Of a DNA stretch of 64,000 nt, positions 5,263 to 61,222 are shown one piece after another. The stretch is taken from IMG/VR virus record IMGVR_UViG_3300012324_000010, one strand, 5' to 3'. Below the pieces are notes generated by a model, which did not search any database, was not told the origin of the DNA, and worked only from the letters and a program-made list of their open reading frames with translations. Each line of letters opens with the position of its first letter. The stretch's first letter is position 1. The position numbers and the translations under genes are program-made. The stretch comes from a virus (lineage: Duplodnaviria > Heunggongvirae > Uroviricota > Caudoviricetes).

Positions 5263-5303
5263 TGCACCTTTTGCTTTTTTAAAGTTGAAAGGTGCATTTT
5301 TTG
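5263..5303 (+). terminator. intrinsic terminator after clamp-like gene
   Basis: Hairpin gcacctttt...aaaggtgc followed by T-run ATTTTTT. Confidence 0.6.
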
Positions 5304-5314
5304 TGTCCCTTTTA
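5297..5314 (+). repeat. polar intergenic motif TTTTTGTGTCCCTTTTAG (copy 1)
   Basis: See finding: one of at least 16 same-strand copies. Confidence 0.8.
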
Positions 5315-5653
5315 GACCTGTGTAGTGCATATGCAACACTTTGTGTTCCTTTTTGAAGATACCTGATGAAAGTTATTTCCAACAATAATCTTTTGATTTC
5401 TCCCTCAATAAGATCAAGGGGAGAATACAACTTTTTTACAGCATTATTACTGCCACATTTTTCAAGTTGGTTATTTATATTCGTGAATATAAATGCAATG
5501 TGCATGCTTTGACCTGCTGTTTTATAACCACTACCCCCATTTTCCACCCCCGTAGAAGTCAAAAAACTTGCGCTGTTCATCTTGCTGTGTCATACTAATA
5601 ACCACAAGGAAAAAACACACCATATCAACACTTCTTAAAGGAGAAAAAATATC

Positions 5654-8221
5654 ATGCGTTATAACACTGGCGTATCTACTATCAGCAATGCACAGTCTAA
5701 TCTTATGACTGTAGATCCTGACAAGGCTGCAAAGGTAGCAGCAATGCTTGTCAACAACTACACCTCCTATGTCACCCCTGTGCGAGAGGTGATCATCAAT
5801 GGTTTGGAAGCTGTTGAGGGTCAAGAAGATGGTCATGTCACAGTAGAGTTTGATGCTCAACAGGAAAAGGCTAGTGCTGTTTTCTCCAACTATGACATCA
5901 ATGGAGAGGGAGACTACATCATTCATATCACTGATAATGGCTGTGGTATGAGCCATGACTTTGCTAAGAACAAGTTTGTTCACCTGACTGCTTCCAGCAA
6001 GGATGACTCTGATGATTCTATTGGTGGCTTTGGTATTGGTGCTAAGGCTGTAGCTTCCATTTCTCACCACACTGTATTCCGCACTGTTCAAGATGGTGTT
6101 GCTACTGTCATTGTCTTTGGTATGTCTGACAAGGGTGCTACTACCTCTGTGAGTGATCCTATGGAAGTAGATGAACCTAATGGTACTAAGGTATCTATCC
6201 ATGTGGATCGGGATACTTTCTACAGTATTATCTCTGATATTGAGGATCAGTTCCTTGACTGGATTGATCCTGAGACTCCACTAACTGTTTCTTCTCCTGA
6301 AAGGGATTTTCAGGTAGGCAAGAAGTCTCAGGATACATTCCATTCTTATGCTCATAGCAATGGTGTTGTAGTTCACATGGTAAAGAACAATGATAAGGGT
6401 ATGTTTAGTTTTAATCCTGCTGACTCTATGCTTCGCTGTGTAGGAATGCCTTATCCTACTACTAACTCTATGAAAGATTCCTATGAGATTGGTACTTCTT
6501 TTGTCAGGGCTTTGAACGGTGTTATCCCAGGAGCGCAAGTAAGAAACAATAGTTTCTACCTCATCATTGATGTTCCACCACGTGATATCACTATTGACTC
6601 TAGCCGTGAGCGTGTAGCTGACACTGTGCATCTTCGCACTGTCATTGATGAAGCTATTGATGCTGCTGTAGAGGATTATGCTTATAGCATTGCACATAAC
6701 CTTAAAAACTCTAAGGATAGCCAGGAGTTTTTTGATAAGATCGCCCAAGGTTTTCCCTGTGTTGGACTCACCCTACGTAGTGGAGCATTGGGCAATGCTA
6801 ACTCCATTGTGGAAGATTACACTACTTATGTAGAAAAAGATAATGATCTTGAGGGCAAGGGCATCTTTATTATCAATGATGAAGATGATAAGTGCTACAA
6901 GAGTGGCAATCTGTATGAAATGGATAATGATTCCATTAGGTACATTCTTGATGCGTGGCGTGCAGAGTCTATTTCTCGTGTTTTTGCAAGCTCTGACAGT
7001 ATTGATGATGCTTTGGGTGTTGATACACACAAGTGCTCTTTTGTGGTAGTTGTTGATACCAAGAATGGTGGCTATACTACACAGATCAACGGTGGCGGTC
7101 TCTATGATAAGATTCTTCCAGATTCTTTCTTGAGTCTTTTTGATGACAAGGAAGACATTGATCTTACTATGGAACTTGTTAAGTGGCATCTTGGCATTGA
7201 TGCTTATACTGCGCCTAAGAGCTACCATGCTATCCGCAAGTCTATGATGACTCGTGGGCGTAGCAAGGGTAAGAATGGTTCCCATTCTAAGCGTGAGATC
7301 TTCTCCTATATTGACAACAATGGAAATCGCAAGATTGTCACTGCTGGTGATGCCAATGATATTCTTACCCAGTGGAAGAATGATAACATTTCTACCCTTG
7401 TTCTGCTTCAAGACAACAATGACAATACTGGTCTTGACTACTATCAAGAAACACTAAAAAACATTGACAAGGTTGTTCAAAAGGTCTATGGCACAGATCA
7501 CAAGGTAGTATTTGTTTCTGCTAAGCGTTGTGATACTGTGGCAAAGAATGTGCGCATCTTGAAAGAAAATGCTGACAAGGCAGTAATGGAAGTCAATGAA
7601 GATATCTTTGATGGTAAAGATGTCACAAACTCTATGTCTCATATCACCAAGGATATGTCTCAAGGAATGGGTTTCTTGTTCTTTGAAAGCTCTCTAGACA
7701 ACTTCTTTGGTGGGGAATATGTCAATAGTGGAATTGGATACAAGTGGCTAGATGCTGAATATGGCAATGGCACTATCCAGGATATTCTTGTTGATTACTT
7801 GAATCTAGATCCTGAAAAGTATCACAAGGCTAAGGAAAATATCATTGAAGCCATTAATGTTGTTTCTGATGATGAACCTCAATCTCCTGATGACACCTCT
7901 GTAGATTACTACCGTGCTATTACTGGAAGTGCTATTGTTTCTGCATTCCACAAATTCTACTACAGCCTTGGAAACAAGGACAAGACACTTGACACTGTAG
8001 GAAAGCTCTTTGCTGATGATGCAGATTACGATGAATACACCCGCCGAGTGCAAATCCTTTTTAACGTTGTAAACTATACTTGCAAAAACCATGTTGGATA
8101 CAGTGGTATTAGCAACAAGGAATCTGCTAAGTTTATGGGTAATACCATTGCTACTGCTCAGGAACTTGCAGACAATCCTGACTCTTTGGCAACTCAAATG
8201 ATGACAAATGGCTGGGTGTAA
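5654..8221 (+). CDS. GHKL (Bergerat-fold, MutL/MORC/Hsp90-type) ATPase domain protein, 855 aa
   Basis: Strong SD AAGGAG. N-terminal motifs EVIINGLEAV (N-box-like), HITDNGCGM (G1 box), IGGFGIGAKAVASIS (G2 box). The rest is acidic with no recognised Toprim or QTK motifs. Confidence 0.65.
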   Translation: MRYNTGVSTISNAQSNLMTVDPDKAAKVAAMLVNNYTSYVTPVREVIINGLEAVEGQEDGHVTVEFDAQQEKASAVFSNYDINGEGDYIIHITDNGCGMSHDFAKNKFVHLTASSKDDSDDSIGGFGIGAKAVASISHHTVFRTVQDGVATVIVFGMSDKGATTSVSDPMEVDEPNGTKVSIHVDRDTFYSIISDIEDQFLDWIDPETPLTVSSPERDFQVGKKSQDTFHSYAHSNGVVVHMVKNNDKGMFSFNPADSMLRCVGMPYPTTNSMKDSYEIGTSFVRALNGVIPGAQVRNNSFYLIIDVPPRDITIDSSRERVADTVHLRTVIDEAIDAAVEDYAYSIAHNLKNSKDSQEFFDKIAQGFPCVGLTLRSGALGNANSIVEDYTTYVEKDNDLEGKGIFIINDEDDKCYKSGNLYEMDNDSIRYILDAWRAESISRVFASSDSIDDALGVDTHKCSFVVVVDTKNGGYTTQINGGGLYDKILPDSFLSLFDDKEDIDLTMELVKWHLGIDAYTAPKSYHAIRKSMMTRGRSKGKNGSHSKREIFSYIDNNGNRKIVTAGDANDILTQWKNDNISTLVLLQDNNDNTGLDYYQETLKNIDKVVQKVYGTDHKVVFVSAKRCDTVAKNVRILKENADKAVMEVNEDIFDGKDVTNSMSHITKDMSQGMGFLFFESSLDNFFGGEYVNSGIGYKWLDAEYGNGTIQDILVDYLNLDPEKYHKAKENIIEAINVVSDDEPQSPDDTSVDYYRAITGSAIVSAFHKFYYSLGNKDKTLDTVGKLFADDADYDEYTRRVQILFNVVNYTCKNHVGYSGISNKESAKFMGNTIATAQELADNPDSLATQMMTNGWV

Positions 8222-8235
8222 CATTTAGTAAATAG

Positions 8236-8284: not shown

Positions 8285-8298
8285 TTTTGTGTCCCTTT
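8285..8298 (+). repeat. polar intergenic motif TTTTGTGTCCCTTT (copy 2)
   Basis: same family. Confidence 0.8.
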
Positions 8299-8453
8299 AG
8301 AAGTATTCTATCCTGCATACTAGACAACATTATTGCTGTATGATACAATTGCTCATGTAAGAAAAACACACCAGAAAATATCAAAAAATGTAGTATATAT
8401 ACTTGTCAGAACAATGACTGACTGATATACTATAAAGTACACACTAATCCTAT

Positions 8454-10209: not shown

Positions 10210-11640
10210 ATTTCACCAAAACCACAAGTCAGAGAAGCCCCGGAATCTTTAGCTCCGGGGAGTGAATGGCTTAAAACTTTCACCCCTCTGGTCCACTTTT
10301 GACAAAGAGGTGAAGAGTATGATATACTTATCCATATCGCCCACAAGACAAAGAAGGGAGGGTTGAAGACATGGAGATAACCTTAACTAGGAAGATTTTA
10401 ATTGAGCCTAGTGAGGAGCAGGAGATACTGCTCAAGAGTACAGCTCAAGCATATACAGATGCCTGTAACTACATCTCAGCGTTCTGTTTCAGAGAGCATA
10501 CAACTTCAAAGAAGAATATTCAGGAATCTTTGTATTATGATCTCAGAGAGCACTTTAACCTCCCTAGTCAGATGGCGATTTCTGCGATTCGTTCAGTGGT
10601 ATCCGCATATGCTACTGTTCACGCAACACAGAAAAGGTGGTCTGTACAACCTGCTTTTAAGAAGCAAAAGTACAATCTTACCTGGAACAGAGACTATTCT
10701 CTCAACAGAAAAACTGGTGATTTTAGCCTCAATACCCTAGATGGTAGGCAGCACATTAAAACCCAGTGGAAGGGACAAGAAAAGTATTCTAGCTTGGAGA
10801 AATACGGCACAGCCACCATTGCTTTTAAGCATGGAAAATGGTTTGCACATATACCCGTATCTATCACTGTGGACGAGTTGAGTCTTGATGATGTGGTAGA
10901 TATTATGGGAATTGACTTGGGTGTAAACTTTCTGGCGACTGCTTACAGCTCCACCACAGGAAAAACACAGTTCTTCAGTGGAAAGCACATCAAGCACAAG
11001 CGAGCACAGTATAATAATCTGCGTTCTGAGCTGCAAAGAAAAGGTACCCGATCTTCAAGAAAACGACTTAAGGCTATTGGTAATCGAGAAAACCGTTGGA
11101 TGAGTGATATCAATCACACCATCACTAAGGCACTCGTGAATACTACCAATCCCACCTTGTTTGTTTTGGAAGATTTAAGCGGTATCCGCTCAGCTACAGA
11201 AAAGGTTCGCACAAAAGATCGCTATGTGCAAGTATCATGGGCATTTTATGATTTCAGAAAGAAGCTAGAATATAAAGCTCAGCTACATGGGCATAAGGTT
11301 CTTATTGTAGATCCTCGGTACACTTCTCAAATGTGTCCTAAATGCGGTTATACACATAAGAAAAACCGCAATAAGAAAACACACACTTTCTGCTGCACAA
11401 AGTGTGGTTATTGTTCCAACGATGATAGAATAGCAGCAATGAATCTGTGTGCAAAGGGAATTCAGTACCGTGCACAGTTCGCTATGAGCAAAGCTCCTAG
11501 CGAAGGGGAAAGTCATCATCCCCACGATGTTCCGACAGCATCTTAGTATGTTAAAAAGGCAGGAGAGATAATCATTCTCGATTACTGCTGGTCAGGGACA
11601 AGCCCTGGAGTCTTTAGCTCTGGGGTAGATGACCCCTTGT
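10210..11640 (+). mobile_element. IS200/IS605-family insertion sequence carrying only tnpB (IS1341-like); boundaries approximate
   Basis: Left-end hairpin ccccggAATCTTTAGCTccgggg at 10238-10260 and near-identical right-end hairpin ccctggAGTCTTTAGCTctgggg at 11603-11625 flank a single TnpB ORF. No tnpA present. Confidence 0.8.
10371..11546 (+). CDS. tnpB: RNA-guided endonuclease TnpB (IS605 OrfB family transposase-associated protein)
   Basis: 391 aa; RuvC-I motif GIDLGVNF, RuvC-II LFVLEDL region, C-terminal zinc finger CPKCGYTHKKNRNKKTHTFCCTKCGYCSNDDRIAAMNL; typical length and architecture. Confidence 0.9.
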   Translation: MEITLTRKILIEPSEEQEILLKSTAQAYTDACNYISAFCFREHTTSKKNIQESLYYDLREHFNLPSQMAISAIRSVVSAYATVHATQKRWSVQPAFKKQKYNLTWNRDYSLNRKTGDFSLNTLDGRQHIKTQWKGQEKYSSLEKYGTATIAFKHGKWFAHIPVSITVDELSLDDVVDIMGIDLGVNFLATAYSSTTGKTQFFSGKHIKHKRAQYNNLRSELQRKGTRSSRKRLKAIGNRENRWMSDINHTITKALVNTTNPTLFVLEDLSGIRSATEKVRTKDRYVQVSWAFYDFRKKLEYKAQLHGHKVLIVDPRYTSQMCPKCGYTHKKNRNKKTHTFCCTKCGYCSNDDRIAAMNLCAKGIQYRAQFAMSKAPSEGESHHPHDVPTAS

Positions 11641-11668
11641 GTGTTATATATACAAGGGATATTTTTTG
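11633..11668 (+). terminator. hairpin plus T-run at IS right boundary
   Basis: ccccttgtgtgttatatatacaagggat then ATTTTTT. Confidence 0.5.
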
Positions 11669-11676
11669 AATCATTT

Positions 11677-11696
11677 ATTTTTTGTGTCCCTTTTTG
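11677..11696 (+). repeat. polar intergenic motif TTTTTTGTGTCCCTTTTT (copy 3)
   Basis: same family. Confidence 0.8.
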
Positions 11697-12106
11697 CCTA
11701 TCAAGATGACACTCTAAAATGTAAAAATAAATGACAACTAATAATGCCACTCGTTTTTTGCTAAGCTCTTCAAACGCTCAACAAAAGGAGTATAAGGTCT
11801 AGGCTCACGGGATTCCAATTCACCTAGTATGTCACTATCAACCACAGTAACGCTGTCTGCTATAGCTTTGTTTCTAGAACATTCTTGGCATTGTCTTATA
11901 TGTTCATCATGCTCATCCATCAATAATCACTTACCTTTCAAAATATCTTCATCAATAGCTTAGTTGCTACAAGATTAAGTTCCTGTTCTTTCATCTATAT
12001 TGATAGTAGATTTCAGTATAACATCAAAAGGATATGTAGTCATTTCATTGTTGATAGAATGATCCACATATCTTAAAAATCATCAAAAAGAAGAGGTAAG
12101 TTCTCT

Positions 12107-13900
12107 ATGGCAAGAAAAAAGACACGCAAATCACCCGCTAGGCGCTCACGTAAGCGTTCAACATCTTCTAAGAAGTCAACTACCCTCAATAGCTCACAAA
12201 AGTCCTTAAAACAGCGTCAGAAGGCTCCTTGGGATAGGTTGAAATTAGCAGGATATGACAATCCTATTATCTATCAATTCCCCTGGGAGGATAGGGCGTT
12301 ATCTAAAGTAGCACAAGCTGAATACTTTCCTGGTATTGGGTATGTATCTTTAAAAGAAAATCCTCTCTTTGAAGATTACAGGGTAAAAAACTACTCTTGG
12401 GAAAAATTCGTAGAAGATAAAACTAGCAATACAACATCTACTCCTTTCCTAGAGGGAGAAAGCCCTTATGTTTTAAGAGAAGATCAAAAAGAAGATGTTG
12501 CAACTATTATGCAAGCCTATAATGCTGGCTCTCCTGAATTCTTGATTGCTAATGCTACTGGTACGGGAAAAACAGTTACCACTCTTGCAGCATTAGATGA
12601 ACTTTCCCCTCACAGTGTTCTTATAGTGTGTCCTGCAGCAGTCATTCCTGTATGGAGAAGACATATTGAAGATATGGGTGATAAGGGAAGGAAATATGTT
12701 GTCATCAACTATGAATCCTTAAAGAAACTTGTGTCCCCTCCTGATGAAGCAGTTAAAGCTAAAAAGGCAGCAACTCAAAATAAACACATTTCTCTATCAG
12801 GAAAACCCTATACATATTTTGATGCAGTTGTTATTGATGAAGCGCACAAGACTAAAAACCCCACTGCACAACAATCACGCATATGCTCTATGATCTCTGC
12901 ACATGCACGCTTTACTCTAAGGCTAACAGCTACCCCTGGAAAAAATCCTTCACAGCTTCATTACTTATATAGACTTTTATCTTTTAATACTGGAGACAGC
13001 ATTGAAGTAAAAGATGATAAAGATTTCTCCCGCTATATTTCCTGGTGTAAAAAGCATCATGTTGATGGCATTGTCTCTGCTCCTTTTGGAAATGGTATTA
13101 CCTTTGAAGGCGGTAGCGATTCTGTAAGAGCTATGGAAAAAATACTCTATGGAAAAACTACCCACGGTGTTACAACAGCCATAAAGAAGAAACCACACAA
13201 TTGGGATAAAGTAATAAGACAACCCTACCCTATTGACATTTCTGCACAAGAAAAACAGGACTATCAACTTCTAGTGGAAGATGTAAAAAACATTATGCTC
13301 AATGCTGGAAAATCTAGAAGAATGGATATGTCTAAAGGTATTGCTGCAATGATGAAGATGCGTCAAAAAGCTGGTCTTTTAAAAGCATCACATATTGCTG
13401 ATTATGCACAGTATTGTGTTCAAGATCTAGGAGAACAAGTAGTCATATCTACTGTATTTCACAACACTGCAGAAGTTATTGAAGAAAAACTCCACTCCTT
13501 AAAAATTGATTGTGTGACAATCACAGGAAAAGACTCTGCTGAAGACAAAGAAGATAAAAGACTAGCCTTCCAACAAGGCAAGGTTCCTGTGGTGATTACC
13601 TCTATTACTACAGGTATTTCTTTACACAGTAATGAAGAATCAGTAGGAGGAAACTCTACTCCTCGCAGACTCATTGTAGGAGATATTCACTTTTCTCCTA
13701 TTGAACATACACAACTAGAGGGAAGGATCAACAGGAATGGAGAAAACGGGATTGTAGTCATTCCCATGCTTGCTGATACAGTAGATGAGAAAGTTGTATC
13801 TACTTTGCTTCATGGTGTAGAAACTCAATCTATTTTGCAATCAAATGGTGATGAAGATGATATTGCTTTTTTGGCTGATGCTTTAGGAGTTAAGCTATAG
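12107..13900 (+). CDS. SNF2/Rad54-family DEAH-box helicase with basic N-terminal tail
   Basis: 597 aa; motif I ANATGTGKT, motif II VIDEAHKTKN, motif III LTATPGKN, C-terminal motif VI QLEGRINRNGE; N-terminus is K/R/S-rich. Confidence 0.85.
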   Translation: MARKKTRKSPARRSRKRSTSSKKSTTLNSSQKSLKQRQKAPWDRLKLAGYDNPIIYQFPWEDRALSKVAQAEYFPGIGYVSLKENPLFEDYRVKNYSWEKFVEDKTSNTTSTPFLEGESPYVLREDQKEDVATIMQAYNAGSPEFLIANATGTGKTVTTLAALDELSPHSVLIVCPAAVIPVWRRHIEDMGDKGRKYVVINYESLKKLVSPPDEAVKAKKAATQNKHISLSGKPYTYFDAVVIDEAHKTKNPTAQQSRICSMISAHARFTLRLTATPGKNPSQLHYLYRLLSFNTGDSIEVKDDKDFSRYISWCKKHHVDGIVSAPFGNGITFEGGSDSVRAMEKILYGKTTHGVTTAIKKKPHNWDKVIRQPYPIDISAQEKQDYQLLVEDVKNIMLNAGKSRRMDMSKGIAAMMKMRQKAGLLKASHIADYAQYCVQDLGEQVVISTVFHNTAEVIEEKLHSLKIDCVTITGKDSAEDKEDKRLAFQQGKVPVVITSITTGISLHSNEESVGGNSTPRRLIVGDIHFSPIEHTQLEGRINRNGENGIVVIPMLADTVDEKVVSTLLHGVETQSILQSNGDEDDIAFLADALGVKL

Positions 13901-14396: not shown

Positions 14397-14443
14397 AAAA
14401 ATCCCCCTTCTAAGGTTGTTTTCCTTAGGAGGGGGATTTTTAT
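14397..14443 (+). terminator. bidirectional intrinsic terminator
   Basis: aaaaatccccc...gggggattttt perfect hairpin flanked by A-run and T-run; sits between convergent genes. Confidence 0.8.
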
Positions 14444-14454
14444 GTCCCTTTTAG
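14437..14454 (+). repeat. polar intergenic motif TTTTTATGTCCCTTTTAG (copy 4, ATG variant)
   Basis: same family. Confidence 0.75.
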
Positions 14455-15761: not shown

Positions 15762-15919
15762 CCCTCTTTCTTTTATATATTATTTGTTGTAATAAGATTA
15801 CATTGTTTAATAATAACAGTGTCCCCTATCACTGTGCATTAGATGATTTTTGACTTTTTATCTATTCTCATCTACCATAAAATACACATAGGAAAACAAC
15901 CACTAGAAAGGATATACCA

Positions 15920-16264
15920 ATGACTGCACAGTATTTCTTTGTTAAATATGCCAAGGGGCAAGATGGAGGATTTGGAGACTACTGTTCTCCTGACTGGGAA
16001 TGCGCAGAATATCTCAGGGATGATAATGGAAACCTATTATGGTTTTCTAATGGGGAAGAAGCAGGCAAGTTTGTTCAATCTTGCAATGACTATTCTGAAA
16101 ATGTGTTTTACTCTCATGGTGACCATTATGATTATGATGGCGATTTTCCTGTAGAATACACTGTATTTTCTTTTGCAATCCCCAATACTGAACCTGCTGT
16201 AGATGCTGATGCTGCATTTGCAGAATACAAAGAAAAGGTAAAAGAAGAAGCGCTTTCTTGGTAA
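15920..16264 (+). CDS. hypothetical protein
   Basis: 114-aa ORF with SD AAAGGA. Confidence 0.55.
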   Translation: MTAQYFFVKYAKGQDGGFGDYCSPDWECAEYLRDDNGNLLWFSNGEEAGKFVQSCNDYSENVFYSHGDHYDYDGDFPVEYTVFSFAIPNTEPAVDADAAFAEYKEKVKEEALSW

Positions 16265-17408: not shown

Positions 17409-17425
17409 GTTTGTGTCCCTTTTAT
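17409..17425 (+). repeat. polar intergenic motif GTTTGTGTCCCTTTTAT (copy 5)
   Basis: same family. Confidence 0.8.
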
Positions 17426-17494
17426 ATATGTAAAAAAATAACCTCTTTTCCTTATAAAGGGTTAACTTATAGGGAAAAGAGGTTATAAGTTATT

Positions 17495-19142: not shown

Positions 19143-19159
19143 TTTGTGTCCCTTTTTAT
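19143..19159 (+). repeat. polar intergenic motif TTTGTGTCCCTTTTTAT (copy 6)
   Basis: same family. Confidence 0.8.
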
Positions 19160-20793: not shown

Positions 20794-20814
20794 GTTTTCG
20801 TGTCCCTTTTTTAA
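20794..20814 (+). repeat. polar intergenic motif GTTTTCGTGTCCCTTTTTTAA (copy 7)
   Basis: same family. Confidence 0.75.
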
Positions 20815-20890
20815 TCTTATATAAAAATTCCCCTTTGATTCTTATAGAAAATCAAAGGGGTAGCTGAAAGAAGTGATTCTTCATATCACC

Positions 20891-24335: not shown

Positions 24336-26573
24336 CTAGGGAATAGGATGGACAGCTTTCCTTCCAAACATCTGATCTTCAATCATAGGAGTCAATGTCT
24401 CTGCAAAGAGATTAGTAATGTGATGACTATCACGGTACACTACAACATTTCCCACAATAGGATTAACCCACCCATCAGTGATAATAGAGCTGTTAATATC
24501 CATCAAAGTAACTCCAGGAATACCCCTATATGCTTCTAGAGAAGGATCTATATCATTTAAAAGACCTTGTGAAGAAAATCCACATTCACTTGAGATATCT
24601 TTTCCATCTACCCTAGACTTGCTAACACAAATGCGCATATCATCATATTTACCATCTTCAGTAGTAGACCATGCAACATCTCGCATGAGATAGATGGGAA
24701 TATTCTTATCAGCAAACTTGCGCATAGATTCTACATACTTTTCTGGAACGATCTCTGGTCCTACACCTGTAGCAGTGCTAGGTCTAGTAGAGGTATGGAA
24801 AATACCTTCTGTAGGAGGGTTATTGAGAACATAGTCTACAACTTTGTCAGAGAAGTCTTTACATCCAGGATAATCTGAATTATCCCACTTCTTATCTAGA
24901 TAAAGAGCACAACCCATCTTAATCAAGGGTATAAGCTTTATACCTCTACGCTTAGCAATATCATCTAAAGCTGGTAGATACATTTCAGAATGGGATCCAC
25001 CTAGAATATACATTGTCTTATCAGAAGAGGTGTCTCCATATTCACAAGGAGTACCATCTTTTTTATTAAACACAATGTCATCGTTTTTAAAATCAGAAAA
25101 ACAGCCATCTTTCTGACTTTGTGGATACATGTTATCTACCCCTTCATCAGGGTTAGGCATAATGTCTACACCATCAGGAACAATCTTATTTTCTGTTACA
25201 GCCCTAGCTCCAGGATAAGCAACATCTTTGCCACCATTAGCAGCAATAGCATGTTCTACCTGAATCTTTTTAAGATGTTCCACCCCTGCATAAATTCCAG
25301 GAGAAGTAGCAACAGTAGCAATCATTACCACAATACATGTTGCAGCAGAACGCATTGCCACAGAAGGAGATCTGCGATGCTTCCTCTTAGCTTTTCCTGA
25401 AAGTATCTCTTTTAGTGTTGCTCTTTTAGGCTTTTTCTTTTGCCTTAATGGTTGTTCTACATAAACATGAGTAACCCATGCAAGAGCACTAGATATAACA
25501 ATGACAACAATACCTTGAAGAATGTCAAATTGTGGTCTAGACGTAATATGAGTAGCAATGATAAGCACCATCCAATGCCACAAATAAAGGCTATAAGAAA
25601 TTTTTCCTAGCCATAGCATAAAAGGAGTTTCAAAGATAAGCACTGGACCCATAGTTGCCCATGATTTCTCTTCTGCTTGATTATGATTTCCAGAAAAGAT
25701 AATCAACATAGCACCAACTAAAGGAACTAGTGTTAAAGGACCAGGAAACTGCTCTACACCATTGAGAACTAAGCCTGTACCTATAATGAGCACTACTCCT
25801 ACTAGTGTAGATACCCACCTTAGAAGAGGAGAAAATACTACCTTGTCCAATACAAAAAGACCAATAAGACCACCTAGTGCAATCTCCCAGAACCTAGAAA
25901 AAGTAGAATAATAGTTTTCTACCTGATTGTGACCACCTAGCCATATAGCATAAACAAAGGAGGAAACAGCTAAAATACCAACTACTGTTGCAACAAGATT
26001 CTTAGCATCTTTCCCTGTCTTCTTACACAGTGAAACACATATCACAATCAAAGCAATGACAAGTGCATAGATTTGTACCTGCACTGACATTGACCATAAA
26101 TGCTGGAAGGCATCAGCATCACTGCTAGCTCGTGCATAGGAATCACCATCTTGGATAAAAATCCAGTTAATACAATACAGTGCTGCAGCAGAAGCATGCC
26201 TTAGCATATCCTCCCACTGTGCAGGAGGAATAACCATAAGAGACAAGACAACTCCTGTGGCAATCATCACAATCAAAGCAGGATACAACCTACGCAAGAT
26301 TCTCAACATAGACTGTGTGTAGGATAGACCATCTTCTTTTTGTGCATTGCGTAGCTGAGAAGAAATCAGCAAAAGACCACCAATAAACAAAAAGATATCC
26401 ACACCAGAAGATACCCTGCCAATAAAGACATGGAAGATAACCACTAGAGCCAGAGCAAACCCTCTAAGACCATCAATGTGATGATAATAGCGCCGAGTGG
26501 AAGTAGAACTACTAGCCCTGTGACTCCCCCCTTTTCTAGGAACTAGTGTTTTAGGTGTCATCATTGTAGTCAC
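24336..26573 (-). CDS. acyltransferase-3 family membrane protein with C-terminal SGNH/GDSL hydrolase domain (OatA/OafA-like O-acetyltransferase)
   Basis: 745 aa; about 10 TM helices with acyltransferase-3 motifs (HHIDGLRGFALALVVIFH); C-terminal soluble domain containing GGSHS-type SGNH block. Confidence 0.8.
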   Translation of the reverse strand: MTTMMTPKTLVPRKGGSHRASSSTSTRRYYHHIDGLRGFALALVVIFHVFIGRVSSGVDIFLFIGGLLLISSQLRNAQKEDGLSYTQSMLRILRRLYPALIVMIATGVVLSLMVIPPAQWEDMLRHASAAALYCINWIFIQDGDSYARASSDADAFQHLWSMSVQVQIYALVIALIVICVSLCKKTGKDAKNLVATVVGILAVSSFVYAIWLGGHNQVENYYSTFSRFWEIALGGLIGLFVLDKVVFSPLLRWVSTLVGVVLIIGTGLVLNGVEQFPGPLTLVPLVGAMLIIFSGNHNQAEEKSWATMGPVLIFETPFMLWLGKISYSLYLWHWMVLIIATHITSRPQFDILQGIVVIVISSALAWVTHVYVEQPLRQKKKPKRATLKEILSGKAKRKHRRSPSVAMRSAATCIVVMIATVATSPGIYAGVEHLKKIQVEHAIAANGGKDVAYPGARAVTENKIVPDGVDIMPNPDEGVDNMYPQSQKDGCFSDFKNDDIVFNKKDGTPCEYGDTSSDKTMYILGGSHSEMYLPALDDIAKRRGIKLIPLIKMGCALYLDKKWDNSDYPGCKDFSDKVVDYVLNNPPTEGIFHTSTRPSTATGVGPEIVPEKYVESMRKFADKNIPIYLMRDVAWSTTEDGKYDDMRICVSKSRVDGKDISSECGFSSQGLLNDIDPSLEAYRGIPGVTLMDINSSIITDGWVNPIVGNVVVYRDSHHITNLFAETLTPMIEDQMFGRKAVHPIP

Positions 26574-28353: not shown

Positions 28354-28370
28354 TTCATGTCCCCTTTTAT
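28354..28370 (+). repeat. polar intergenic motif TTTCATGTCCCCTTTTAT (copy 8)
   Basis: same family; 7 nt from start codon of 27898..28347 (-), its reverse complement doubles as an SD-like AAAGGGGA. Confidence 0.7.
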
Positions 28371-39054: not shown

Positions 39055-39238
39055 TTTCTCCTTTTATTACATGATATATATTGTGCTTGTTGATATTACA
39101 AAATCAATAGTACCTGATACTACTTATAAATGCAAGATTGTTCTACTTTTGCATAAAAAGTAAAACAGGCTGTGAGCTTGTTATTATAATATATGACCTT
39201 TTCACATTGTAAAAAAAAGATTGGATACTGAAACACCC

Positions 39239-47305: not shown

Positions 47306-47659
47306 TTATTGTGCTGCAGCAATGCACTCTTTTTCCAGTTGAGGAATCTCAAAAGAAATGCGCTCAATCTTTTCAGTAGAGCGGTATCCATCTCGCACTA
47401 GATAATCACACTCCCTTAAAGCTTTGTCTAGTTTTTGTCCCTCTGGAGTATCTTGTAAAGAAATATTTTTCTCTTTTAGATGCAAGCGCACCTGTTCTAC
47501 TTGTTGTTGCACTCTATCTCTAATCTTTTTGCTTTTCACGTGTGCTCTTTTCTGCTTCTTTTTCTCATTTCCAGCCAGAAACAAAAAAGTAACTAACCCA
47601 ACCAAGAGAATGATAGCAACTGCAACAATGCCAATAGTGACCCAAGTACTTATGCCCAT
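47306..47659 (-). CDS. membrane-anchored hypothetical protein
   Basis: Start trimmed to MGISTWV (SD AAAGGA); one TM then charged coiled region. Confidence 0.5.
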   Translation of the reverse strand: MGISTWVTIGIVAVAIILLVGLVTFLFLAGNEKKKQKRAHVKSKKIRDRVQQQVEQVRLHLKEKNISLQDTPEGQKLDKALRECDYLVRDGYRSTEKIERISFEIPQLEKECIAAAQ

Positions 47660-47824
47660 AGAAATATAATCCTTTTTTATTGAAAAACTTTTTTGTATAT
47701 TCCTTCCACTGTAGTTGTAAACAGTGACATAATCCAAATTTCAATGAAAGTCAAGGATGTAGGGTTGATTTTTTAAAATATACCAACTATCTTGTACAAA
47801 AACAAAAAATGTTACATGGGAAAA

Positions 47825-47839
47825 CCATGTCCCTTTTAG
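47825..47839 (+). repeat. polar intergenic motif CCATGTCCCTTTTAG (copy 10)
   Basis: same family. Confidence 0.7.
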
Positions 47840-48171
47840 TGATTGCAAAAATAAAAGCTCTATTTTCCATTTTAAGCCTTTGAAAACACTTGTATGGGTA
47901 TTTGTACAAATCTCTCCCCTGCAACGCTCTCACAGCCACGCAGGGTATCTATTTAGCTCATTTTGAATACAGCATCAGAAGACATCTTCTCTATATAGGA
48001 TCTTCTTCTCTTTGAGTTGAGTTGTTTCTCATCTCTTTGCACAAAAAAGCAAATCCATTTTAAGAAGATAAACTCTTTTCATGTAGGACCCTACCTAGAT
48101 CTTGTGCTCAACTTCTTAAAACGTCTCATAGAACAAAAACTTCTATCTTTCCCCTTGAAAAATCACAAAAT

Positions 48172-48778: not shown

Positions 48779-48834
48779 TTTTTCCACCTGGGAAAACGTT
48801 TTATACACATTTTTATCCACAGGGTTGTGGATAA
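48779..48834. promoter_or_regulatory. cluster of DnaA-box-like sequences
   Basis: TTTTCCACC (48779), TTATCCACA (48813), and inverted TTGTGGATAA (48825), which is rc of TTATCCACAA. Lies in AT-rich non-coding DNA. Confidence 0.5.
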
Positions 48835-49195
48835 CTCTAAATAAGCTTTCTACCTGCTGTTATGCAAAAATGTGATCAAACTCATATAGAGGTGAAAATG
48901 ACTTATTTTTATACCTTGAGCTGCAAGTTAATCTTTTGTTAACCTAATGTTCATCTATTATTTTTATTCATAAGTGGTTTTTTGCGAAAAAATGACTCTG
49001 GGGACATGAAAATAGCACCTTTTCTAGTGGTTGAAAATAACGATTTTTGCGTGATCCACTTCACAAAAATGCCCTAAAAATTCAGCCAATTTCTCCATAT
49101 AAACGATTTTTTATAAGGTCTGCACTTTTGATGTAAAAAGTGCAAAAACTTAACATAATGGAGAAGTTTTCTTGGGTTTCTTTTCCTCAAGTATC

Positions 49196-49214
49196 ATTTT
49201 TGTGTCCCTTTTAC
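49196..49214 (+). repeat. polar intergenic motif TTTTTGTGTCCCTTTTACC (copy 11)
   Basis: same family. Confidence 0.8.
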
Positions 49215-49556
49215 CAATTGCTGTTAGTGGATAACACCTATCATTGGATATATCTTCCTACAGCAAAATCGCACCCAAAATCTATTGCTTTAAAAGTGAA
49301 TCTGAAACAGAAGATAAACACCCCTGAAAAACTAAAAAATATAGCTATACAAGGAAAGAAAAACGCATTGAAGTACAAATACTCACAAAAATACTTTCAA
49401 CCGCTTAGAAAGCAATATAGAGCTTTTTATCTCTTCTTCTTTTAAAGATCAAAAATGAGACTGATCTTCAAAAAAACCAGTCTCTTTTCCAACCTATTTG
49501 GTTGTATATTTCATGATAACCTGTGAGGAAAACACAGCTCTTGTTCCTGTGGTAGA

Positions 49557-50833: not shown

Positions 50834-51271
50834 CTATACAAGATTAGGTTGTGCAGTCTTGTGGAAATCTAGTTCAATAGAGCGCACATCATAAGTAGAT
50901 GCAGCCTTGGATAGATTGATGATCATGAAGTTGTCATCATCACCTGCAAGATTATACACCTCATGCATGGAATCTAGAGCAAAAATATCGGCATCAGTCC
51001 AGTTACGTGCAGCAGCATTTCGGTGGTAGTTATCTTTACCCAAATCCAGCTTAGAATAATCAATCATAAAGACATCTTGCAAAATCAGTCCTGTTACAGA
51101 GTGTACTCCTCGCTTGTTGAGCATCATGGTGATGTCGTTGTCACCAAGTACATTTTCAATCAAAGAAACAGTGGAATCAAAAGTATTCTTGGTAGATGCT
51201 ACTACTCCAGTGACAACTCCAGCACCCTGGTAGTGGTTTTCTACAATAATAAACTTGGACATATATCTCAT
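50834..51271 (-). CDS. hypothetical protein
   Basis: 145-aa ORF. Confidence 0.5.
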   Translation of the reverse strand: MRYMSKFIIVENHYQGAGVVTGVVASTKNTFDSTVSLIENVLGDNDITMMLNKRGVHSVTGLILQDVFMIDYSKLDLGKDNYHRNAAARNWTDADIFALDSMHEVYNLAGDDDNFMIINLSKAASTYDVRSIELDFHKTAQPNLV

Positions 51272-51392: not shown

Positions 51393-51412
51393 TTTTGTGT
51401 CCCCTTTTTACC
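51393..51412 (+). repeat. polar intergenic motif TTTTGTGTCCCCTTTTTACC (copy 12)
   Basis: same family. Confidence 0.8.
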
Positions 51413-52334: not shown

Positions 52335-52353
52335 ATTGTGTCCCTTTCTTTTT
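52335..52353 (+). repeat. polar intergenic motif ATTGTGTCCCTTTCTTTTT (copy 13)
   Basis: same family. Confidence 0.75.
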
Positions 52354-52365: not shown

Positions 52366-52412
52366 GAAAAACACCCCTTAAAACACATCTAAGAGGTGCA
52401 TTTAAATCATAG
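52366..52412 (-). terminator. intrinsic terminator downstream of deoxyribonucleotidase-like gene
   Basis: aaaaacaccccttaaaacacatctaagaggtg hairpin with flanking A/T runs. Confidence 0.55.
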
Positions 52413-53106: not shown

Positions 53107-53787
53107 AAGTGATAAAACTCCTTGATAATATAAGTGCTTTTTTTTAGATACACACAGTACTATAGCAGTGTATCTTTGCTTGATCAAGGGAAATGCAAAG
53201 AAAAATAAAAAACACCCCCTCTATGCAGAGGTAGCTCTTTGCATAAAGGGGTGTTTTAATTGAATACTAAGGAGTAAATAGTTCATCAGATACACCGCAG
53301 CATAAGCTATAAGTAAGCTTCTGCTGCATGTATGACTATACCACAAGATAAAAGAAGATAAAAAGAAAAAGCACACATGTACTTTTTACTCCTTGGTAGC
53401 GATCAAGCCCCCACCACACAATAAGGAAAACAACAGCAAAGGGCGATCAAGCTGGTGGAATAAAAAGCAAACATATGTGCTTCTCCCTCTATTCATTTAT
53501 ATGAGCACTATATAAGAAAACATCCTTTTCCTCAAGTGCTGTTTTTAAGTATACTACATAGGGTAAAAATGTGTCAAAATAGGGTGTATGAAATGGGAGT
53601 TTTTGCAGGTAGATGGCAATAAAATATGTTGATTATTTTTTGCACATCTTTACAGCTTTACAGATTTGCAGATTTACAGCTTTTTCTTGGTTTTTCTCTT
53701 TTCCCTAGTAGTTAGACAAAGATATTATTAAAAAATATAATGCAGATTACAATGGAGTTTATCTTTCAAAAACAAAAGGAGTGCTCT

Positions 53788-54255
53788 ATGGAGAATACAA
53801 ACTATCTTGTTACTTCTTCTGATGAGGATATGTATTATCTTTTAAAGGATGATACTTCTACCCCACAAGAAAGCTTAGAATACTTCCTGCATTGTGATAT
53901 GAAAGCTTTGTCAGAGTTTATAGCAACAGTAGAATCTTCTTCCACGTTGATTTACTACTGGAGGGAAATAGAATCATTGGATATTTCCCTAGATTATTGC
54001 ACTCAATCTCAAGAACTTCTTTTCTCTTTTGTGGGAAATGATAATACTCCACAAGAAATCATCCATGATGTAGTGAGCAATAATACTGTATTAAAAGATG
54101 ACAGGCTAGGAGTAGAACCTTGTGTGGCGCATATGTTTGCTGCGCATAAAAACTCCACTGGAGAACTCATGGAAACATATCATGATAACTTTGATCATCA
54201 TCAGGATATACAAGATGATTTTAATGAGTTAATGGTAGAAAAGTTATTGAATTAA
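53788..54255 (+). CDS. acidic hypothetical protein
   Basis: Start trimmed to MENTNYL with AAAGGAG SD. Confidence 0.55.
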   Translation: MENTNYLVTSSDEDMYYLLKDDTSTPQESLEYFLHCDMKALSEFIATVESSSTLIYYWREIESLDISLDYCTQSQELLFSFVGNDNTPQEIIHDVVSNNTVLKDDRLGVEPCVAHMFAAHKNSTGELMETYHDNFDHHQDIQDDFNELMVEKLLN

Positions 54256-54326: not shown

Positions 54327-54346
54327 TATTTGTGTCCCCTTTTGAC
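54327..54346 (+). repeat. polar intergenic motif TATTTGTGTCCCCTTTTGAC (copy 14)
   Basis: same family. Confidence 0.8.
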
Positions 54347-57742: not shown

Positions 57743-58627
57743 ATGGATTTTTTACGTCACATATGGTGGGTGATAAACCACAATCCAATAATCATTGGTC
57801 TATGGTGGTTTGTCATGATCGTCATAGCAGGGGTGCTTATCACCAGAATGCTCAATATGTTGCAGAAAATATTGATTAAGTTCTATGGCATCACTATCAC
57901 AGATTCACAGTGGAATATCACTCTTGTTCAAGCAGTGGTGTGGCTAGCAAAAGTTATGACATGGATTATTATCATTGCCATGATTGCTTCTAGAGTAGGA
58001 ATCCCTGCAGGACTCATTGCAGCTATGGGCACTATTATTGGTGCAGCATTAGGTTTTGGTTCTCAAGAAACAGTAAGAGATGTGGTTAAAGGAAGCATCC
58101 ATCTTCTAGAAAAGCAGTTTTCTGTAGGAGACTATATTGGACTTAATGTTTCAGGCGTAGAACATGAAGGTGTGGTTAAAGATGTATCTTTGAGAACTTT
58201 AACTCTAGCTACAGAAGAATATGGCGTGGTAACCATTCCACAGGGGAATATTACTTTGATCCAAAACTACTCTAGAAATGTTGGTGAATTTGTAGTGCGT
58301 CTTCCTTTTGACACTTCTACTCCAGTATCACCTATTATTGCACTTACAGAAGAAGTAGTGGAAGACATTCACATCAAAGATCACAGTGTTGTTAAAAAAT
58401 ACATCACAGAAGATGATATTAAAGATCTCACCACTATCACTAGTGCAACAGTAAGAGGAGTATCTAGTGTAGAAGATGGAAAGATTATCATCCAGGTAAA
58501 AGGTGAATCTATCCCAGGTTCTCAGTTTGCAGCAAAAAGAGCATTACTTAAAGCTATTGCAGGACATCTAGAAGAAAATGATGTTCAGTTCTACTCTATC
58601 CACCTTCCAGCAAGACAGGAGGTATAA
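57743..58627 (+). CDS. MscS-family mechanosensitive channel
   Basis: Three N-terminal TMs then FSVGDYIGLNVSGVEHEGVVKDVSLRTLTLATEEYGVVTIPQGNI matching the MscS beta-domain signature. Confidence 0.8.
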   Translation: MDFLRHIWWVINHNPIIIGLWWFVMIVIAGVLITRMLNMLQKILIKFYGITITDSQWNITLVQAVVWLAKVMTWIIIIAMIASRVGIPAGLIAAMGTIIGAALGFGSQETVRDVVKGSIHLLEKQFSVGDYIGLNVSGVEHEGVVKDVSLRTLTLATEEYGVVTIPQGNITLIQNYSRNVGEFVVRLPFDTSTPVSPIIALTEEVVEDIHIKDHSVVKKYITEDDIKDLTTITSATVRGVSSVEDGKIIIQVKGESIPGSQFAAKRALLKAIAGHLEENDVQFYSIHLPARQEV

Positions 58628-58630
58628 TAT

Positions 58631-59185
58631 ATGTCTTATATTACAAAGATTATTGAAACATTAGGTGGATGGAAACAAGCATGGTCATTGGTAAAACCAT
58701 CTACCTCTACTACTGTTATGGCTATTGTGCTTTTCATCTTGGTGATATTTTTCCCGGAAAATCAGTGGCAATCACAAGAAGATAAAGATGAAGCATCCCA
58801 TCCACTATTTACTCAAACCCAGCAAGTAGAAGAAACTGAGACCTCTTCTACACCTCAGGAAACTACCACCACTCAGGTAGAAGATGACACTAACAATGAA
58901 GAAACTGATGATACTTCTGTGCAAGACACCCCACCTACCAGTGAGGTAGAAAATGATGATTCCTATAATGATCAAGGAAGCAATGAATCTTATGCTCCAC
59001 AACCATCACAGCAAGAATCAGTACACAATGATCCTAATGGCACACAGGGTGTAGATGATACAACAGATGGATATAGTGGTTATAACAATAGACAAAATAT
59101 ACCTTCTCAAAATCAAGAACCTACACCTGAAGAAGATGCACCTGCACAAAACTATAATGGAGAAGAAAACAATAATCAGCAATAA
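58631..59185 (+). CDS. membrane-anchored acidic Q/T/E/D-rich protein
   Basis: SD AGGAGG; one TM then low-complexity tail. Confidence 0.55.
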   Translation: MSYITKIIETLGGWKQAWSLVKPSTSTTVMAIVLFILVIFFPENQWQSQEDKDEASHPLFTQTQQVEETETSSTPQETTTTQVEDDTNNEETDDTSVQDTPPTSEVENDDSYNDQGSNESYAPQPSQQESVHNDPNGTQGVDDTTDGYSGYNNRQNIPSQNQEPTPEEDAPAQNYNGEENNNQQ

Positions 59186-59187: not shown

Positions 59188-59206
59188 AGTTTTGTGTCCC
59201 TTCTAT
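59188..59206 (+). repeat. polar intergenic motif AGTTTTGTGTCCCTTCTAT (copy 15)
   Basis: same family. Confidence 0.75.
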
Positions 59207-59210
59207 GCAT

Positions 59211-60264: not shown

Positions 60265-60265
60265 A

Positions 60266-61183
60266 ATGTTAGGAAGAGAAAAAATGGCACTAGAAACAAC
60301 ACAAGTTAATGACACCCCCACTATAGAAAACTGTGATGCTTTAATAGATTATTCTGATGATAGATTTGTCTTTCAATGGTTTTTCAACAGGGAAAAAGAA
60401 AACCCTACTATATATCCCCAAGAGCTGAAGGATGTCATATTCATCAATAATATATCTCACAGAAGGGAAAAAGTAGAGAAGCAGTATGGATTGTTCTCTG
60501 AGATTGAAGAAATAGAAAAATCTTTTCTATTGTGTAAAGCAGTTTTATCAATAGTACTTACTCTAACAATGTTTTTGTTACTTGTTATTGCATCTCATAT
60601 TTTTATTCCAGAAGATTTTCCTCTATGGCACTGGTTAGTAGAGCACAACCTTTCTGTTGGCTTACCTTTTCTTATCTCCTTGTCTACTACTTTTCTTCTT
60701 CCTATTAAACAGTGGTCTGAACACATTGATAAAAGCATTTTAATGCAATCTGGAGGGAAGGAAATGAGAAGGATAAAAAATATCACCTTGGTGGATTTTT
60801 CTTTCACTATAAATCAAGAAGTAGATAGTATCAATCAACAGTTTTTGAGAACAATGAAAGAACTTCTATCTCTGGAAAATAATGCACTATCTCACTCAGG
60901 ATGGGAATGTCTTTTCCCTTATTATGATAGGTATATGTCTTTGTATATCTTCTTATCAGCAAACAGAAATGCTATATCCTCTTCCCTTATGGATGAATAT
61001 AGTAGGAAGTTAAATATCAGTTATAAAGAGTTTTATCAGGCTGCACAAGATGTCATTGTCAATGGAAGAAAATATCAAAAAGATATTGATGCAGAAAAAG
61101 ATAATGCAAGACAGATTAAGCAAAAGATGCTAGATGATGATGCATTGAGAGCTATTCCATTAGATAAAGATGGTCTTTTTTAA
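60266..61183 (+). CDS. membrane protein, tandem paralog 2
   Basis: Start 2 nt after the preceding stop; paralogous to 59341..60264. Confidence 0.6.
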   Translation: MLGREKMALETTQVNDTPTIENCDALIDYSDDRFVFQWFFNREKENPTIYPQELKDVIFINNISHRREKVEKQYGLFSEIEEIEKSFLLCKAVLSIVLTLTMFLLLVIASHIFIPEDFPLWHWLVEHNLSVGLPFLISLSTTFLLPIKQWSEHIDKSILMQSGGKEMRRIKNITLVDFSFTINQEVDSINQQFLRTMKELLSLENNALSHSGWECLFPYYDRYMSLYIFLSANRNAISSSLMDEYSRKLNISYKEFYQAAQDVIVNGRKYQKDIDAEKDNARQIKQKMLDDDALRAIPLDKDGLF

Positions 61184-61202
61184 AAGATGTCTTTCCTCTT
61201 GT

Positions 61203-61222
61203 GGTTTTATGTCCCTTTTTTG
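61203..61222 (+). repeat. polar intergenic motif GGTTTTATGTCCCTTTTTTG (copy 16)
   Basis: same family. Confidence 0.75.

Follow-up and report, generated by a model that had tools for sequence, protein, structure and literature searches.

A 14-nt motif kept on one DNA strand at transcription-unit boundaries of uncultivated large phages, with strand-specific nicking as a possible function

Sequence motifs that keep to one DNA strand regardless of gene orientation are rare, and a directional DNA machine came to light through each of the known examples, namely Chi, the FtsK-orienting polar sequences (KOPS), Ter and the phage nick sites. We describe a motif of this kind in a 64,000-nt stretch of viral DNA (Caudoviricetes; IMG/VR record IMGVR_UViG_3300012324_000010), hereafter the window, whose presented strand is called plus. 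The motif is built around a core of GTGTCCC or ATGTCCC (jointly RTGTCCC), is conserved across a deep uncultivated clade of roughly 230-360-kb phages of human skin, and lies at transcription-unit boundaries. The signal is genuine, is confined to one phage clade and is polar relative to the DNA rather than to transcription. Among the mechanisms weighed below, strand-specific nicking is the one we prefer, with low confidence and by analogy with other phages.

In the window RTGTCCC matches 24 times, 23 times on the plus strand and once on the minus strand, against 9.5 matches expected on both strands together. The longer form GTGTCCCYTTT occurs eight times on plus and never on minus, with an expectation of 0.05 from shuffled sequences, and the most strand-asymmetric words of the whole window are GTGTCCC and the 7-mers and 8-mers that overlap it (18:0). 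Seventeen plus-strand copies are non-coding, with cores at 5303, 8289, 11684, 14442, 15819, 17413, 19146, 20800, 28357, 31198, 47827, 49202, 51397, 52338, 54332, 59194 and 61209; the non-coding DNA of the window amounts to 14.5 kb, or 23%. The other six plus copies (12731, 36228, 39291, 40961, 57509 and 60001) lie within open reading frames (ORFs), mostly lack the T flanks, and are about as many as chance would place in coding sequence. An information-content profile over the 17 non-coding copies delimits a 14-nt motif, TTT-[G/A]-TGTCCC-[T/C]-TTT, with background beyond it. The first core position of the non-coding copies is G or A only, and all TTGTCCC copies fall within called ORFs. There is no self-complementarity and the motif is not palindromic, as an earlier note on this DNA had stated. 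Since nothing is conserved outside the 14 nt, the motif is neither a miniature inverted-repeat transposable element (MITE) nor part of a longer repeat. Derivation from a MITE or an insertion sequence (IS), the kind of mobile repeat against which that note had wished its motif checked, was ruled out, as the flanks differ in 47 of 47 aligned copies and the information content drops outside the motif.

The same polarity extends beyond the window. The window is the reverse complement of positions 104,605-168,604 of the metagenomic contig ENA ERZ26880680 NODE_1 (231,935 bp), which encodes an 855-aa rIIA-like protein at window positions 5654-8221. This contig was read for a further 8.9 kb leftward and 9.3 kb rightward (82 kb contiguous in all), and about 10 kb further left were read in a 90% identical strain, for a total of about 92 kb. 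In window orientation RTGTCCC counts are 2:0 in the left 8.9 kb, 6:0 in the right 9.3 kb and 5:0 in the further 10 kb of the related strain. Over the contiguous 82 kb GTGTCCC stands at 24:0, where 2.5-2.8 copies are expected on plus and about 1-2 on minus; the claim that all clean copies share the plus strand is thus borne out, and the equal-strand counts that would have contradicted it are not seen. Active avoidance of the motif on the minus strand was considered and dropped, zero observed against about 1-2 expected not being significant. The window contains motif-free gaps of 7.6 kb and 16.6 kb; the latter (31.2-47.8 kb, which bears a group of protease genes) holds no non-coding copy at all.

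Conservation was followed in relatives, defined as syntenic loci found through homologs of the rIIA-like protein. Identity to that protein is 87% in L120 (guanine-cytosine (GC) content 40%), 46% and 45% in L122 and L123 (GC 48-49%) and 37% in L213 (GC 41%). In all four the core is unchanged and its strand, judged against the conserved genes, is the same; the counts are 11:0 in L120, 13:0 in L122, 13:3 in L123 and 3:0 in L213; the three opposite-strand copies of L123 all lie within genes. When copies are filtered for T flanks, 47 of 47 in the window, both its flanks, L120, L122 and L123 are on the window's plus strand; loci beyond these give 5:0, 5:0 and 3:0. The core is therefore invariant over 37-49% GC and down to 37% protein identity; in the GC-rich relatives the upstream T flank is weaker and RTGTCCCYTT is retained. 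One syntenic site is found 67-119 nt past the rIIA-like stop codon in five lineages. Lineage-specific gains occur on the same strand, for instance upstream of three consecutive minus-strand genes in L122. The locus L215, whose rIIA-like match is 35% identical over 22% of the query at a GC content of 29%, has no motif. The motif may mark members of the clade in metagenomes, its specificity having been checked against this one out-group only.

One spacer shows how copies can vary in number. Behind a conserved gene of 377 or 378 aa there are one to three tandem copies depending on the lineage, spaced 12, 40 or 61 nt apart: three in L123 (9132, 9193 and 9205), two in L120 (9436 and 9476), and one at 5303 plus a decayed one at 5343 in the window. 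In L122 this spacer contains an additional 557-aa RibLong gene, with a copy on either side (7437 and 9270). Two strain homology breakpoints fall exactly at motif edges, at window 5353, the 3' edge of the decayed copy, where L120 carries a 72-aa gene, and at window -7564, behind the GyrA-like gene, a hint that the motif can act as a recombination boundary. A separate element near a copy was judged unrelated. An IS200/IS605-family element carrying TnpB only (about 10218-11653, TnpB ORF 10371-11546) follows a 282-aa gene and is inserted after TTCACC in the left arm of the terminator hairpin 11634-11658, about 50 nt from the motif, which it does not carry. Its site is empty in L120 and L133, and L213 has a larger TnpB-like gene (548 aa) in the opposite orientation; on these grounds a link between the element and the motif was rejected.

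Copies do not track the orientation of the neighbouring genes. Spacers of all four kinds are occupied on the same DNA strand: 5 of 11 between tandem plus genes, 7 of 28 between tandem minus genes, 3 of 13 convergent and 1 of 15 divergent. Density is similar in plus and minus gene arrays, and exclusion from divergent spacers is a trend only. In plus arrays a stop codon is followed by a canonical intrinsic terminator, then after 5-39 nt by the motif, and 70-425 nt later by the next start, with sigma-70-like -35 and -10 boxes between motif and start. Along the minus strand of minus arrays the terminator comes first, about 20 nt before the reverse-complement motif, and another 9-126 nt lead to the start; in relatives with compact minus operons 3-17 nt separate the reverse complement from the ATG. 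Eight of 17 copies are found at most 45 nt downstream of a terminator hairpin, in the terminator's own direction, a position that 12.6% of non-coding nucleotides share (P = 5e-4). Some copies are flanked by two convergent terminators, and the spacing to a hairpin on the right is tight (19-24 nt), in keeping with the earlier observation that the motif often sits beside a hairpin on either side. The motif is thus associated with transcription-unit ends on either strand, yet has a single DNA orientation.

A second conserved word provides a control. The leader word GGAAAACA, often in the form GTTCAAGAGGAAAACA and here called GGAAAAC, occurs at 15891, 23746, 53425 and 61845 on plus and at 1697, 51298 and 61632 on minus. 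It closely follows sigma-70-like -35 and -10 boxes, 25-40 nt ahead of start codons, flips with gene orientation, and is probably the conserved 5' leader or start region of phage transcripts that depend on the host RNA polymerase. Both the polar motif and a separate GGAAAAC leader stand upstream of genes such as 50834-51271 and 15920-16264. The earlier note's view that the polarity belongs to the DNA rather than to transcription is therefore upheld by the four spacer types as well as by this control.

Readings at the level of gene expression fit the copies in part. A promoter is hard to reconcile with one DNA orientation for plus and minus genes alike, no second element and no fixed spacing; furthermore, convergent spacers need no promoter and divergent ones hold only promoters, so that occupancy is the reverse of a promoter pattern. 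The motif is not itself an intrinsic terminator either, being free of self-complementarity and lying 5-39 nt beyond separate canonical terminators. Ribosome-binding sites of the genes are ordinary AAGGAG-type Shine-Dalgarno (SD) sequences. The reverse complement of the motif occupies the SD position at a minority of copies (28357 and 31198 in the window; 1225, 1902 and 2440 in L122; 3216 and 4445 in L123; 9338 in L132), and in the 13-nt spacer TAGAAAGGGACACAGTATG of a relative's compact minus operon it must also serve as the SD. Roughly half of all copies lie behind plus genes with no conserved minus-strand ORF that such an SD could serve, and the exact heptamer GGGACAC occurs neither as the SD of a plus gene nor anywhere on the plus strand. 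The SD regions of the plus gene starts at 9344, 32777 and 43700 (AAAGGACAC, AAAGGGATACAC and AAAGGGAACAC) resemble the reverse-complement motif with one base interrupting or one G missing. Since promoters in either direction, terminators, ribosome-binding sites and RNA targets would each cover about half of the copies, and none of them accounts for the complete disuse of the other orientation in about 92 kb and five lineages, a strand-specific signal at the DNA level, which would account for every copy, is favoured.

The individual copies illustrate this arrangement; all those that follow are on the plus strand unless stated. Behind plus genes, a copy TTTGTGTCCCTTTT (5300-5313) lies 7 nt past the terminator hairpin 5263-5296 of the gene 4110-5243, followed by the decayed second copy TTTGTGTTCCTTTT (5340-5353), which is intact in L120, L128 and L133, 40 nt past the first. 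The copy at 8286-8299 lies 68 nt past the rIIA-like stop and 22 nt past a hairpin and is syntenic in L120, L122, L123 and L213; another (11681-11694) is 26 nt past the hairpin 11634-11658. Two more follow the stops of the genes 53740-54255 (54329-54342, 77 nt past) and 58631-59185 (59191-59204, 9 nt past). Convergent spacers contain an ATGTCCC variant (14439-14452) 6 nt past the bidirectional terminator 14402-14436, a copy (52335-52348) with the minus terminator 52372-52398 about 25 nt to its right, and a second ATGTCCC variant (61206-61219) 18 nt to the left of the bidirectional terminator 61233-61276. The motif had been said to lie shortly 3' of plus-gene stops, and indeed it is 9-138 nt past those at 5243, 8221, 11546, 14380, 54255, 59185 and 61183. 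The one occupied divergent spacer holds a weaker copy, ACAGTGTCCCCTAT (15816-15829), whose flank AATAATAACA is kept in all relatives.

Copies between minus genes are placed 5' of start codons, as had likewise been noted, the distance being 58-126 nt apart from two close cases. At 17410-17423 a minus terminator (17440-17484) is 20 nt to the right and the minus start 17313 is 100 nt to the left; the copy at 19143-19156 is 77 nt upstream of the ATG at 19069, and that at 20797-20810 has the minus terminator 20830-20860 24 nt to its right. In the two close cases, as had been reported too, the reverse complement sits at the SD position: that of the variant ATGTCCCC (28354-28367) is 10 nt before the ATG of the gene 27898-28347, and that of the copy at 31195-31208 is 9 nt before the ATG of the gene 30308-31189. 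A copy at 51394-51407 lies between the minus-strand gene for the aspartate transfer RNA (tRNA-Asp) and the minus gene 50834-51271, about 100 nt upstream of that gene's GGAAAAC leader at 51298. The remaining two belong to a 1.8-kb non-coding region that is a candidate origin: an ATGTCCC variant at its left edge (47824-47837), 90 nt upstream of the minus gene 47306-47737, and a copy in its right part (49199-49212). The only RTGTCCC on the opposite strand (49001-49007, minus), already reported as a partial inverted copy at 49003, is inside the same region; it has poor flanks with no T-run after the core and is probably non-functional.

What could maintain such a signal? A search of the literature on the motif string and on polar intergenic phage motifs yielded nothing relevant except a paper on phage nick sites (PMC3517423), and that one paper supplies a precedent where the earlier note knew of none. 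The nick sites of T5 and BF23, of tf and other LUZ24-like phages and of phiKMV-like phages follow a one-strand consensus regardless of gene direction (PMC3517423). Phage tf has 14 such sites in 46 kb, about one per 3.3 kb; every TACT/RTGMC site, like every near-match, is on the top strand, even though the genes run in two converging arms, and related phages have their sites at comparable places (PMC3517423). The motif described here resembles them in its density of about one per 3 kb, its restriction to one strand and its conserved positions among relatives, as well as in a T|R-T-G-N-C pattern with G preferred over A at the first position. Because the one-strand rule, the independence of gene direction, the conserved consensus and positions and the density all match those of the nick-site phages, we put forward, as a possibility to be held lightly, that the motif is a recognition site for strand-specific nicking. 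A conserved phage-encoded site-specific nickase would recognize it and act on one strand, so that the packaged genome would carry localized interruptions in that strand. The likeliest place for the cut would be the T|R border, TTTT/RTGTCCC, as in TACT/RTGMC of tf. With all sites on one strand, the complementary strand would stay continuous and the genome intact. Placing sites past terminators or outside transcription units could avoid nicks in the template strand of genes that are transcribed before sealing. Nicking, the cut position and the reason for the placement are all inferred by analogy only.

Several observations weigh against nicking. The likeness to the tf consensus was spotted post hoc and is suggestive only. 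The tf sites are mostly in coding sequence or on start codons (PMC3517423), unlike the present ones, which are almost exclusively non-coding; moreover, the motif here is 14 nt long, T-flanked and enriched after terminators, and its host is an unrelated jumbo phage. Comparison of the tf genome with the 82 kb by tblastx returned low-complexity matches only and no homolog of a tf protein or nickase. The window's only candidate for a sequence-specific nuclease is a weak one for a nickase: the minus-strand gene 28415-30145 encodes 576 aa with four DUF4379 treble-clef zinc-ribbon domains and a Vsr/EDxHD-like nuclease segment, matches PF18741 and the I-Bth0305I 'mobile intron protein' (3r3p) weakly, and is probably a free-standing homing endonuclease. 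Several copies in relatives are inside compact operons, 3-17 nt upstream of minus starts, so that some are transcribed. The contig ends of fragmentary assemblies do not coincide with motif sites in locus tables compared by eye, which is a weak test. Finally, about 40% of the genome was read, which limits any claim of genome-wide polarity.

Whether the polarity follows replication can be judged from the non-coding region mentioned above. Between 47,740 and 49,556, 1.8 kb without a credible ORF have a GC content of 30-33%. Three DnaA boxes, TTATACACA at 48801, TTATCCACA at 48813 and an inverted perfect TTATCCACA at 48826-48834, cluster within 34 nt (48801-48834); a near-box lies at 49226, and the whole window has three perfect boxes only. 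A 55-nt inverted repeat stands near the edges of the region (47853-47907 and 49373-49427). To its left, the coding-strand GC skew at four-fold sites is -0.49 for plus genes against -0.27 for minus genes; to its right the values are -0.27 and -0.33 and the difference is gone. The asymmetry has the same sign in three relatives. The coding-corrected cumulative skew declines between about 1 kb and 47.7 kb, where it reaches its minimum, and beyond that point stays level or climbs; the curve is noisy and dominated by few genes. We regard 47.7-49.6 kb, with moderate confidence, as a candidate bidirectional origin using host DnaA. The motif is on the plus strand on either side of it, with ten or more copies to the right. 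That no flip occurs speaks against roles that depend on fork direction, such as priming of the lagging strand or Chi- and KOPS-like signalling, and weakens the coupling to replication direction that the earlier note had listed among its candidates; processes of genome-uniform polarity are compatible with the motif, insofar as the origin is placed correctly. The corrected skew also has a local maximum near the window start (about -500 to 1150, the L129 region). Two genes have atypical synonymous-site composition, 1147-1668 and a 644-aa HNH/Mom-like protein just right of the window (64001-65821); they may be recent acquisitions or mark a second skew switch.

Other directional or boundary-related functions would account for different parts of the pattern. 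The broadest is an undescribed genome-wide polar signal, neither nick site nor promoter, read by a conserved phage factor in non-coding DNA past transcription-unit ends, whose uniform orientation across the origin and irrespective of gene direction would set the direction of a process acting on the whole genome, be it packaging, ejection or internalisation, or strand-selective transcription or processing; we find this quite conceivable, if short of probable. Short and highly conserved intergenic motifs of phages are usually promoters, and a class-specific promoter or start element for minus-strand transcription only deserves attention for that reason. In that case AAAAGGGACACAAA would play the part of a -10-like element recognised by a phage sigma factor or RNA polymerase, giving sense messenger RNAs, some nearly leaderless, where it lies upstream of minus genes, and at the 3' ends of plus genes short antisense RNAs like lambda OOP that run into the terminator hairpin and help shut-off. 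The reverse complement does lie 3-126 nt upstream of many minus starts and in plus arrays points into the upstream gene's terminator (5-39 nt off), tandem copies occur 12, 40 and 61 nt apart, and the purine-rich strand would offer a purine start. Yet about half of the copies would be antisense, the motif serves no plus gene in five lineages and roughly 92 kb, divergent spacers are the least often occupied (1/15) and convergent ones more often (3/13), and neither a second element nor a fixed distance to starts is seen. A core-to-ATG distance of 3-5 nt would moreover leave no space for a downstream start site, and motif-bearing genes also have their own sigma-70-like promoter and GGAAAAC leader, so that we consider a promoter doubtful. 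The enrichment after terminators of both directions, including sites between convergent terminators, could instead reflect an asymmetric phage DNA-binding protein that marks transcription-unit boundaries, either as a fail-safe roadblock or insulator past terminators or as a strong site for a phage gyrase-like topoisomerase relieving supercoils, with orientation fixed by a separate polar process such as the direction of packaging or ejection. Repetitive extragenic palindromic (REP) sequences and bacterial interspersed mosaic elements (BIME) of E. coli bind gyrase at operon 3' ends, Reb1, TTF-I and mTERF are polar roadblocks at unit ends, and genes for GyrB and a GyrA/ParC-like protein are nearby; the tight 19-24 nt spacing to right-hand hairpins and the tandem copies, suggestive of cooperative binding, would suit such a protein. 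It is nonetheless unlikely: its function needs no fixed DNA orientation, which leaves the key feature unexplained, copies within compact operons would obstruct the very operon they belong to, the roughly 92 kb read yielded no candidate for the binding protein, and we know of no phage precedent.

Strict strand specificity is equally what a replication-linked single-strand signal would show, whether a primase or primer-start site, another initiation site on one template, or a Chi- or KOPS-like sequence. The purine-only first core position fits the 5' nucleotide of an RNA primer with the plus sequence, GTGTC is one of the strong T7 primase sites (a lead only), and left of 48 kb the four-fold-site skew makes the minus strand look leading, with the same sign in three relatives. 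This account is quite unlikely given the unchanged polarity across the candidate origin and skew minimum at about 48 kb, the copy-free gaps of 7.6 and 16.6 kb, and the opposite orientation relative to the motif of the two TnpB insertions of the window and L213; Chi, KOPS and primase sites, besides, are not limited to non-coding DNA and need no T flanks. Recombination offers a way for polarity to maintain itself independently of cassette genes: were the motif the core at which site-specific recombination mobilised gene cassettes, by the logic of integron attC sites or Vibrio cholerae repeats (VCR), a circle with one site entering a resident site would leave two direct sites. The extra 557-aa gene between copies in L122, the tandem sites (three in L123, two in L120, one plus a decayed one in the window) and the two breakpoints exactly at motif edges (window 5353 and -7564) invite such a reading. 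It is very unlikely to be the main explanation, because most breakpoints lie elsewhere and site positions are stable over deep divergence, gene order and sites being conserved to 37-45% protein identity. Two of 10 strain breakpoints at the motif are not significant within intergenic DNA, attC-like secondary structure is missing, and the only recombinases seen are of the IS607 type, in a single strain. That the pattern is a side effect of base composition or coding bias, or stems from a repeated mobile element, is effectively refuted. A second strand-biased word, CATTGTC (30:7), is indeed explained by the codon usage of the minus-strand genes, which are the majority, and the plus strand is somewhat pyrimidine-rich at synonymous sites; but the motif copies are non-coding, occur 8 times against 0.05 over shuffles, keep an invariant core across 12 GC points and belong to no extended repeat. 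Four further resemblances were treated as leads only: CCCTT is the site of poxvirus topoisomerase IB, GGGAC that of BsmFI, RTGRYC is an old gyrase cleavage consensus, and the purine-rich strand of the motif resembles a polypurine tract.

Comparison with known systems sharpens the picture. Stoperators of cluster A mycobacteriophages, the sites of the L5 gp71 repressor, are likewise asymmetric 13-14-bp sequences that occur dozens of times in short gaps between genes, close to starts and stops, and are conserved among related phages; unlike the motif, however, their orientation follows transcription and flips between the arms. Chi, KOPS and the SpoIIIE recognition sequences (SRS) share strand polarity over long distances and are read directionally by DNA-translocating enzymes, but they are 5-8 nt long, lie mainly in genes and flip at the origin or terminus, whereas the motif is non-coding and T-flanked and does not flip at the candidate origin. 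In T7 the Type III restriction site CAGCAG, also asymmetric, is found in a single orientation. Inverted pairs of Type III sites would be deleterious. The T7 bias is an effect of composition and unidirectional transcription with no enrichment, in contrast to the strong enrichment and conservation of the motif. Integron attC sites and Vibrio cholerae repeats are intergenic, uniform in orientation and placed at the 3' ends of gene cassettes, but they are imperfect palindromes of 57-141 bp in cassette arrays of variable order, while the motif is a 14-nt non-palindromic sequence at stable syntenic positions.

If the copies are nick sites, the unexplained phenomenon of T5 and tf would extend to jumbo phages, and the link to terminators would be the first clue that transcription constrains nick placement. 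If they are not, the motif points to a directional process in large phage genomes. Either way it is a precise 14-nt handle for pull-downs, end-mapping and genetics.

The element that carries the motif is phage-like. Near-identical and related contigs of 261-364 kb come from human skin metagenomes, and a scan of metagenome contigs gave one near-identical strain. Gene coordinates are ORF-based calls, compared with the collection's gene calls where such existed. Products of the window region comprise a rIIA-like GHKL ATPase, a rIIB-like protein, an SNF2 helicase, TnpB, three trypsin-like proteases, an acyltransferase, a RibLong surface protein, an MscS-like channel, together with eight tRNAs scattered across it; genes for GyrB and a GyrA/ParC-like protein are found some 3-7.5 kb beyond the left end of the window. 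The majority of the region's proteins matched no Pfam or PHROG family. No relatives but distant homologs of housekeeping domains were found in GenBank phages, IMG/VR, GTDB genomes or PLSDB, and the rIIA-like protein has neither DNA nor protein relatives in GenBank phages, IMG/VR or GTDB genomes. In IMG/VR an exact 15-mer of the motif gave only single chance matches, and an Rfam scan returned tRNAs and no other known RNA family. A bacterial chromosome or an archaeal origin was ruled out by the rIIA-/rIIB-like and GyrB/GyrA-like genes, the tRNAs and the predominance of ORFans. Because the gene content is phage-like and mostly ORFan with no database relatives, the source is treated as an uncultivated jumbo phage lineage. 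The earlier suggestion of an uptake or transfer signal loses ground accordingly, the element being neither a bacterial chromosome nor a conjugative plasmid.

Some features of the surroundings are of interest in their own right. An accessory cluster includes three tandem trypsin-like protease paralogs (34441-38651, minus), an 843-aa surface protein with RibLong domains (39221-41752, plus), and AT3-SGNH acyltransferase and MscS-like channel genes at 24336-26573 (minus) and 57743-58627 (plus). Defence-like islands vary by strain, with Eco57I-like and ResIII genes in L120 and an N6_N4 methyltransferase with a helicase in L128 and L131. The 267-kb sister strain L128 has two IS607-like insertions (6004-8080 and 11029-13060), each consisting of a serine recombinase and a TnpB-like gene of 468-478 aa; the second is a 2.2-kb insert at window position 3516-3520 or so, at the edge of a tRNA-Arg gene. 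The eight tRNA genes (3242-3589, 21233, 51523, 55171, 63486 and 63709) are mostly single and on both strands; among them are tRNA-Ile(TAT) and two tRNA-Arg(CCT). Over 52 nt, the phage tRNA-Thr shares 92% identity with its counterpart in phiKZ-like Pseudomonas phages.

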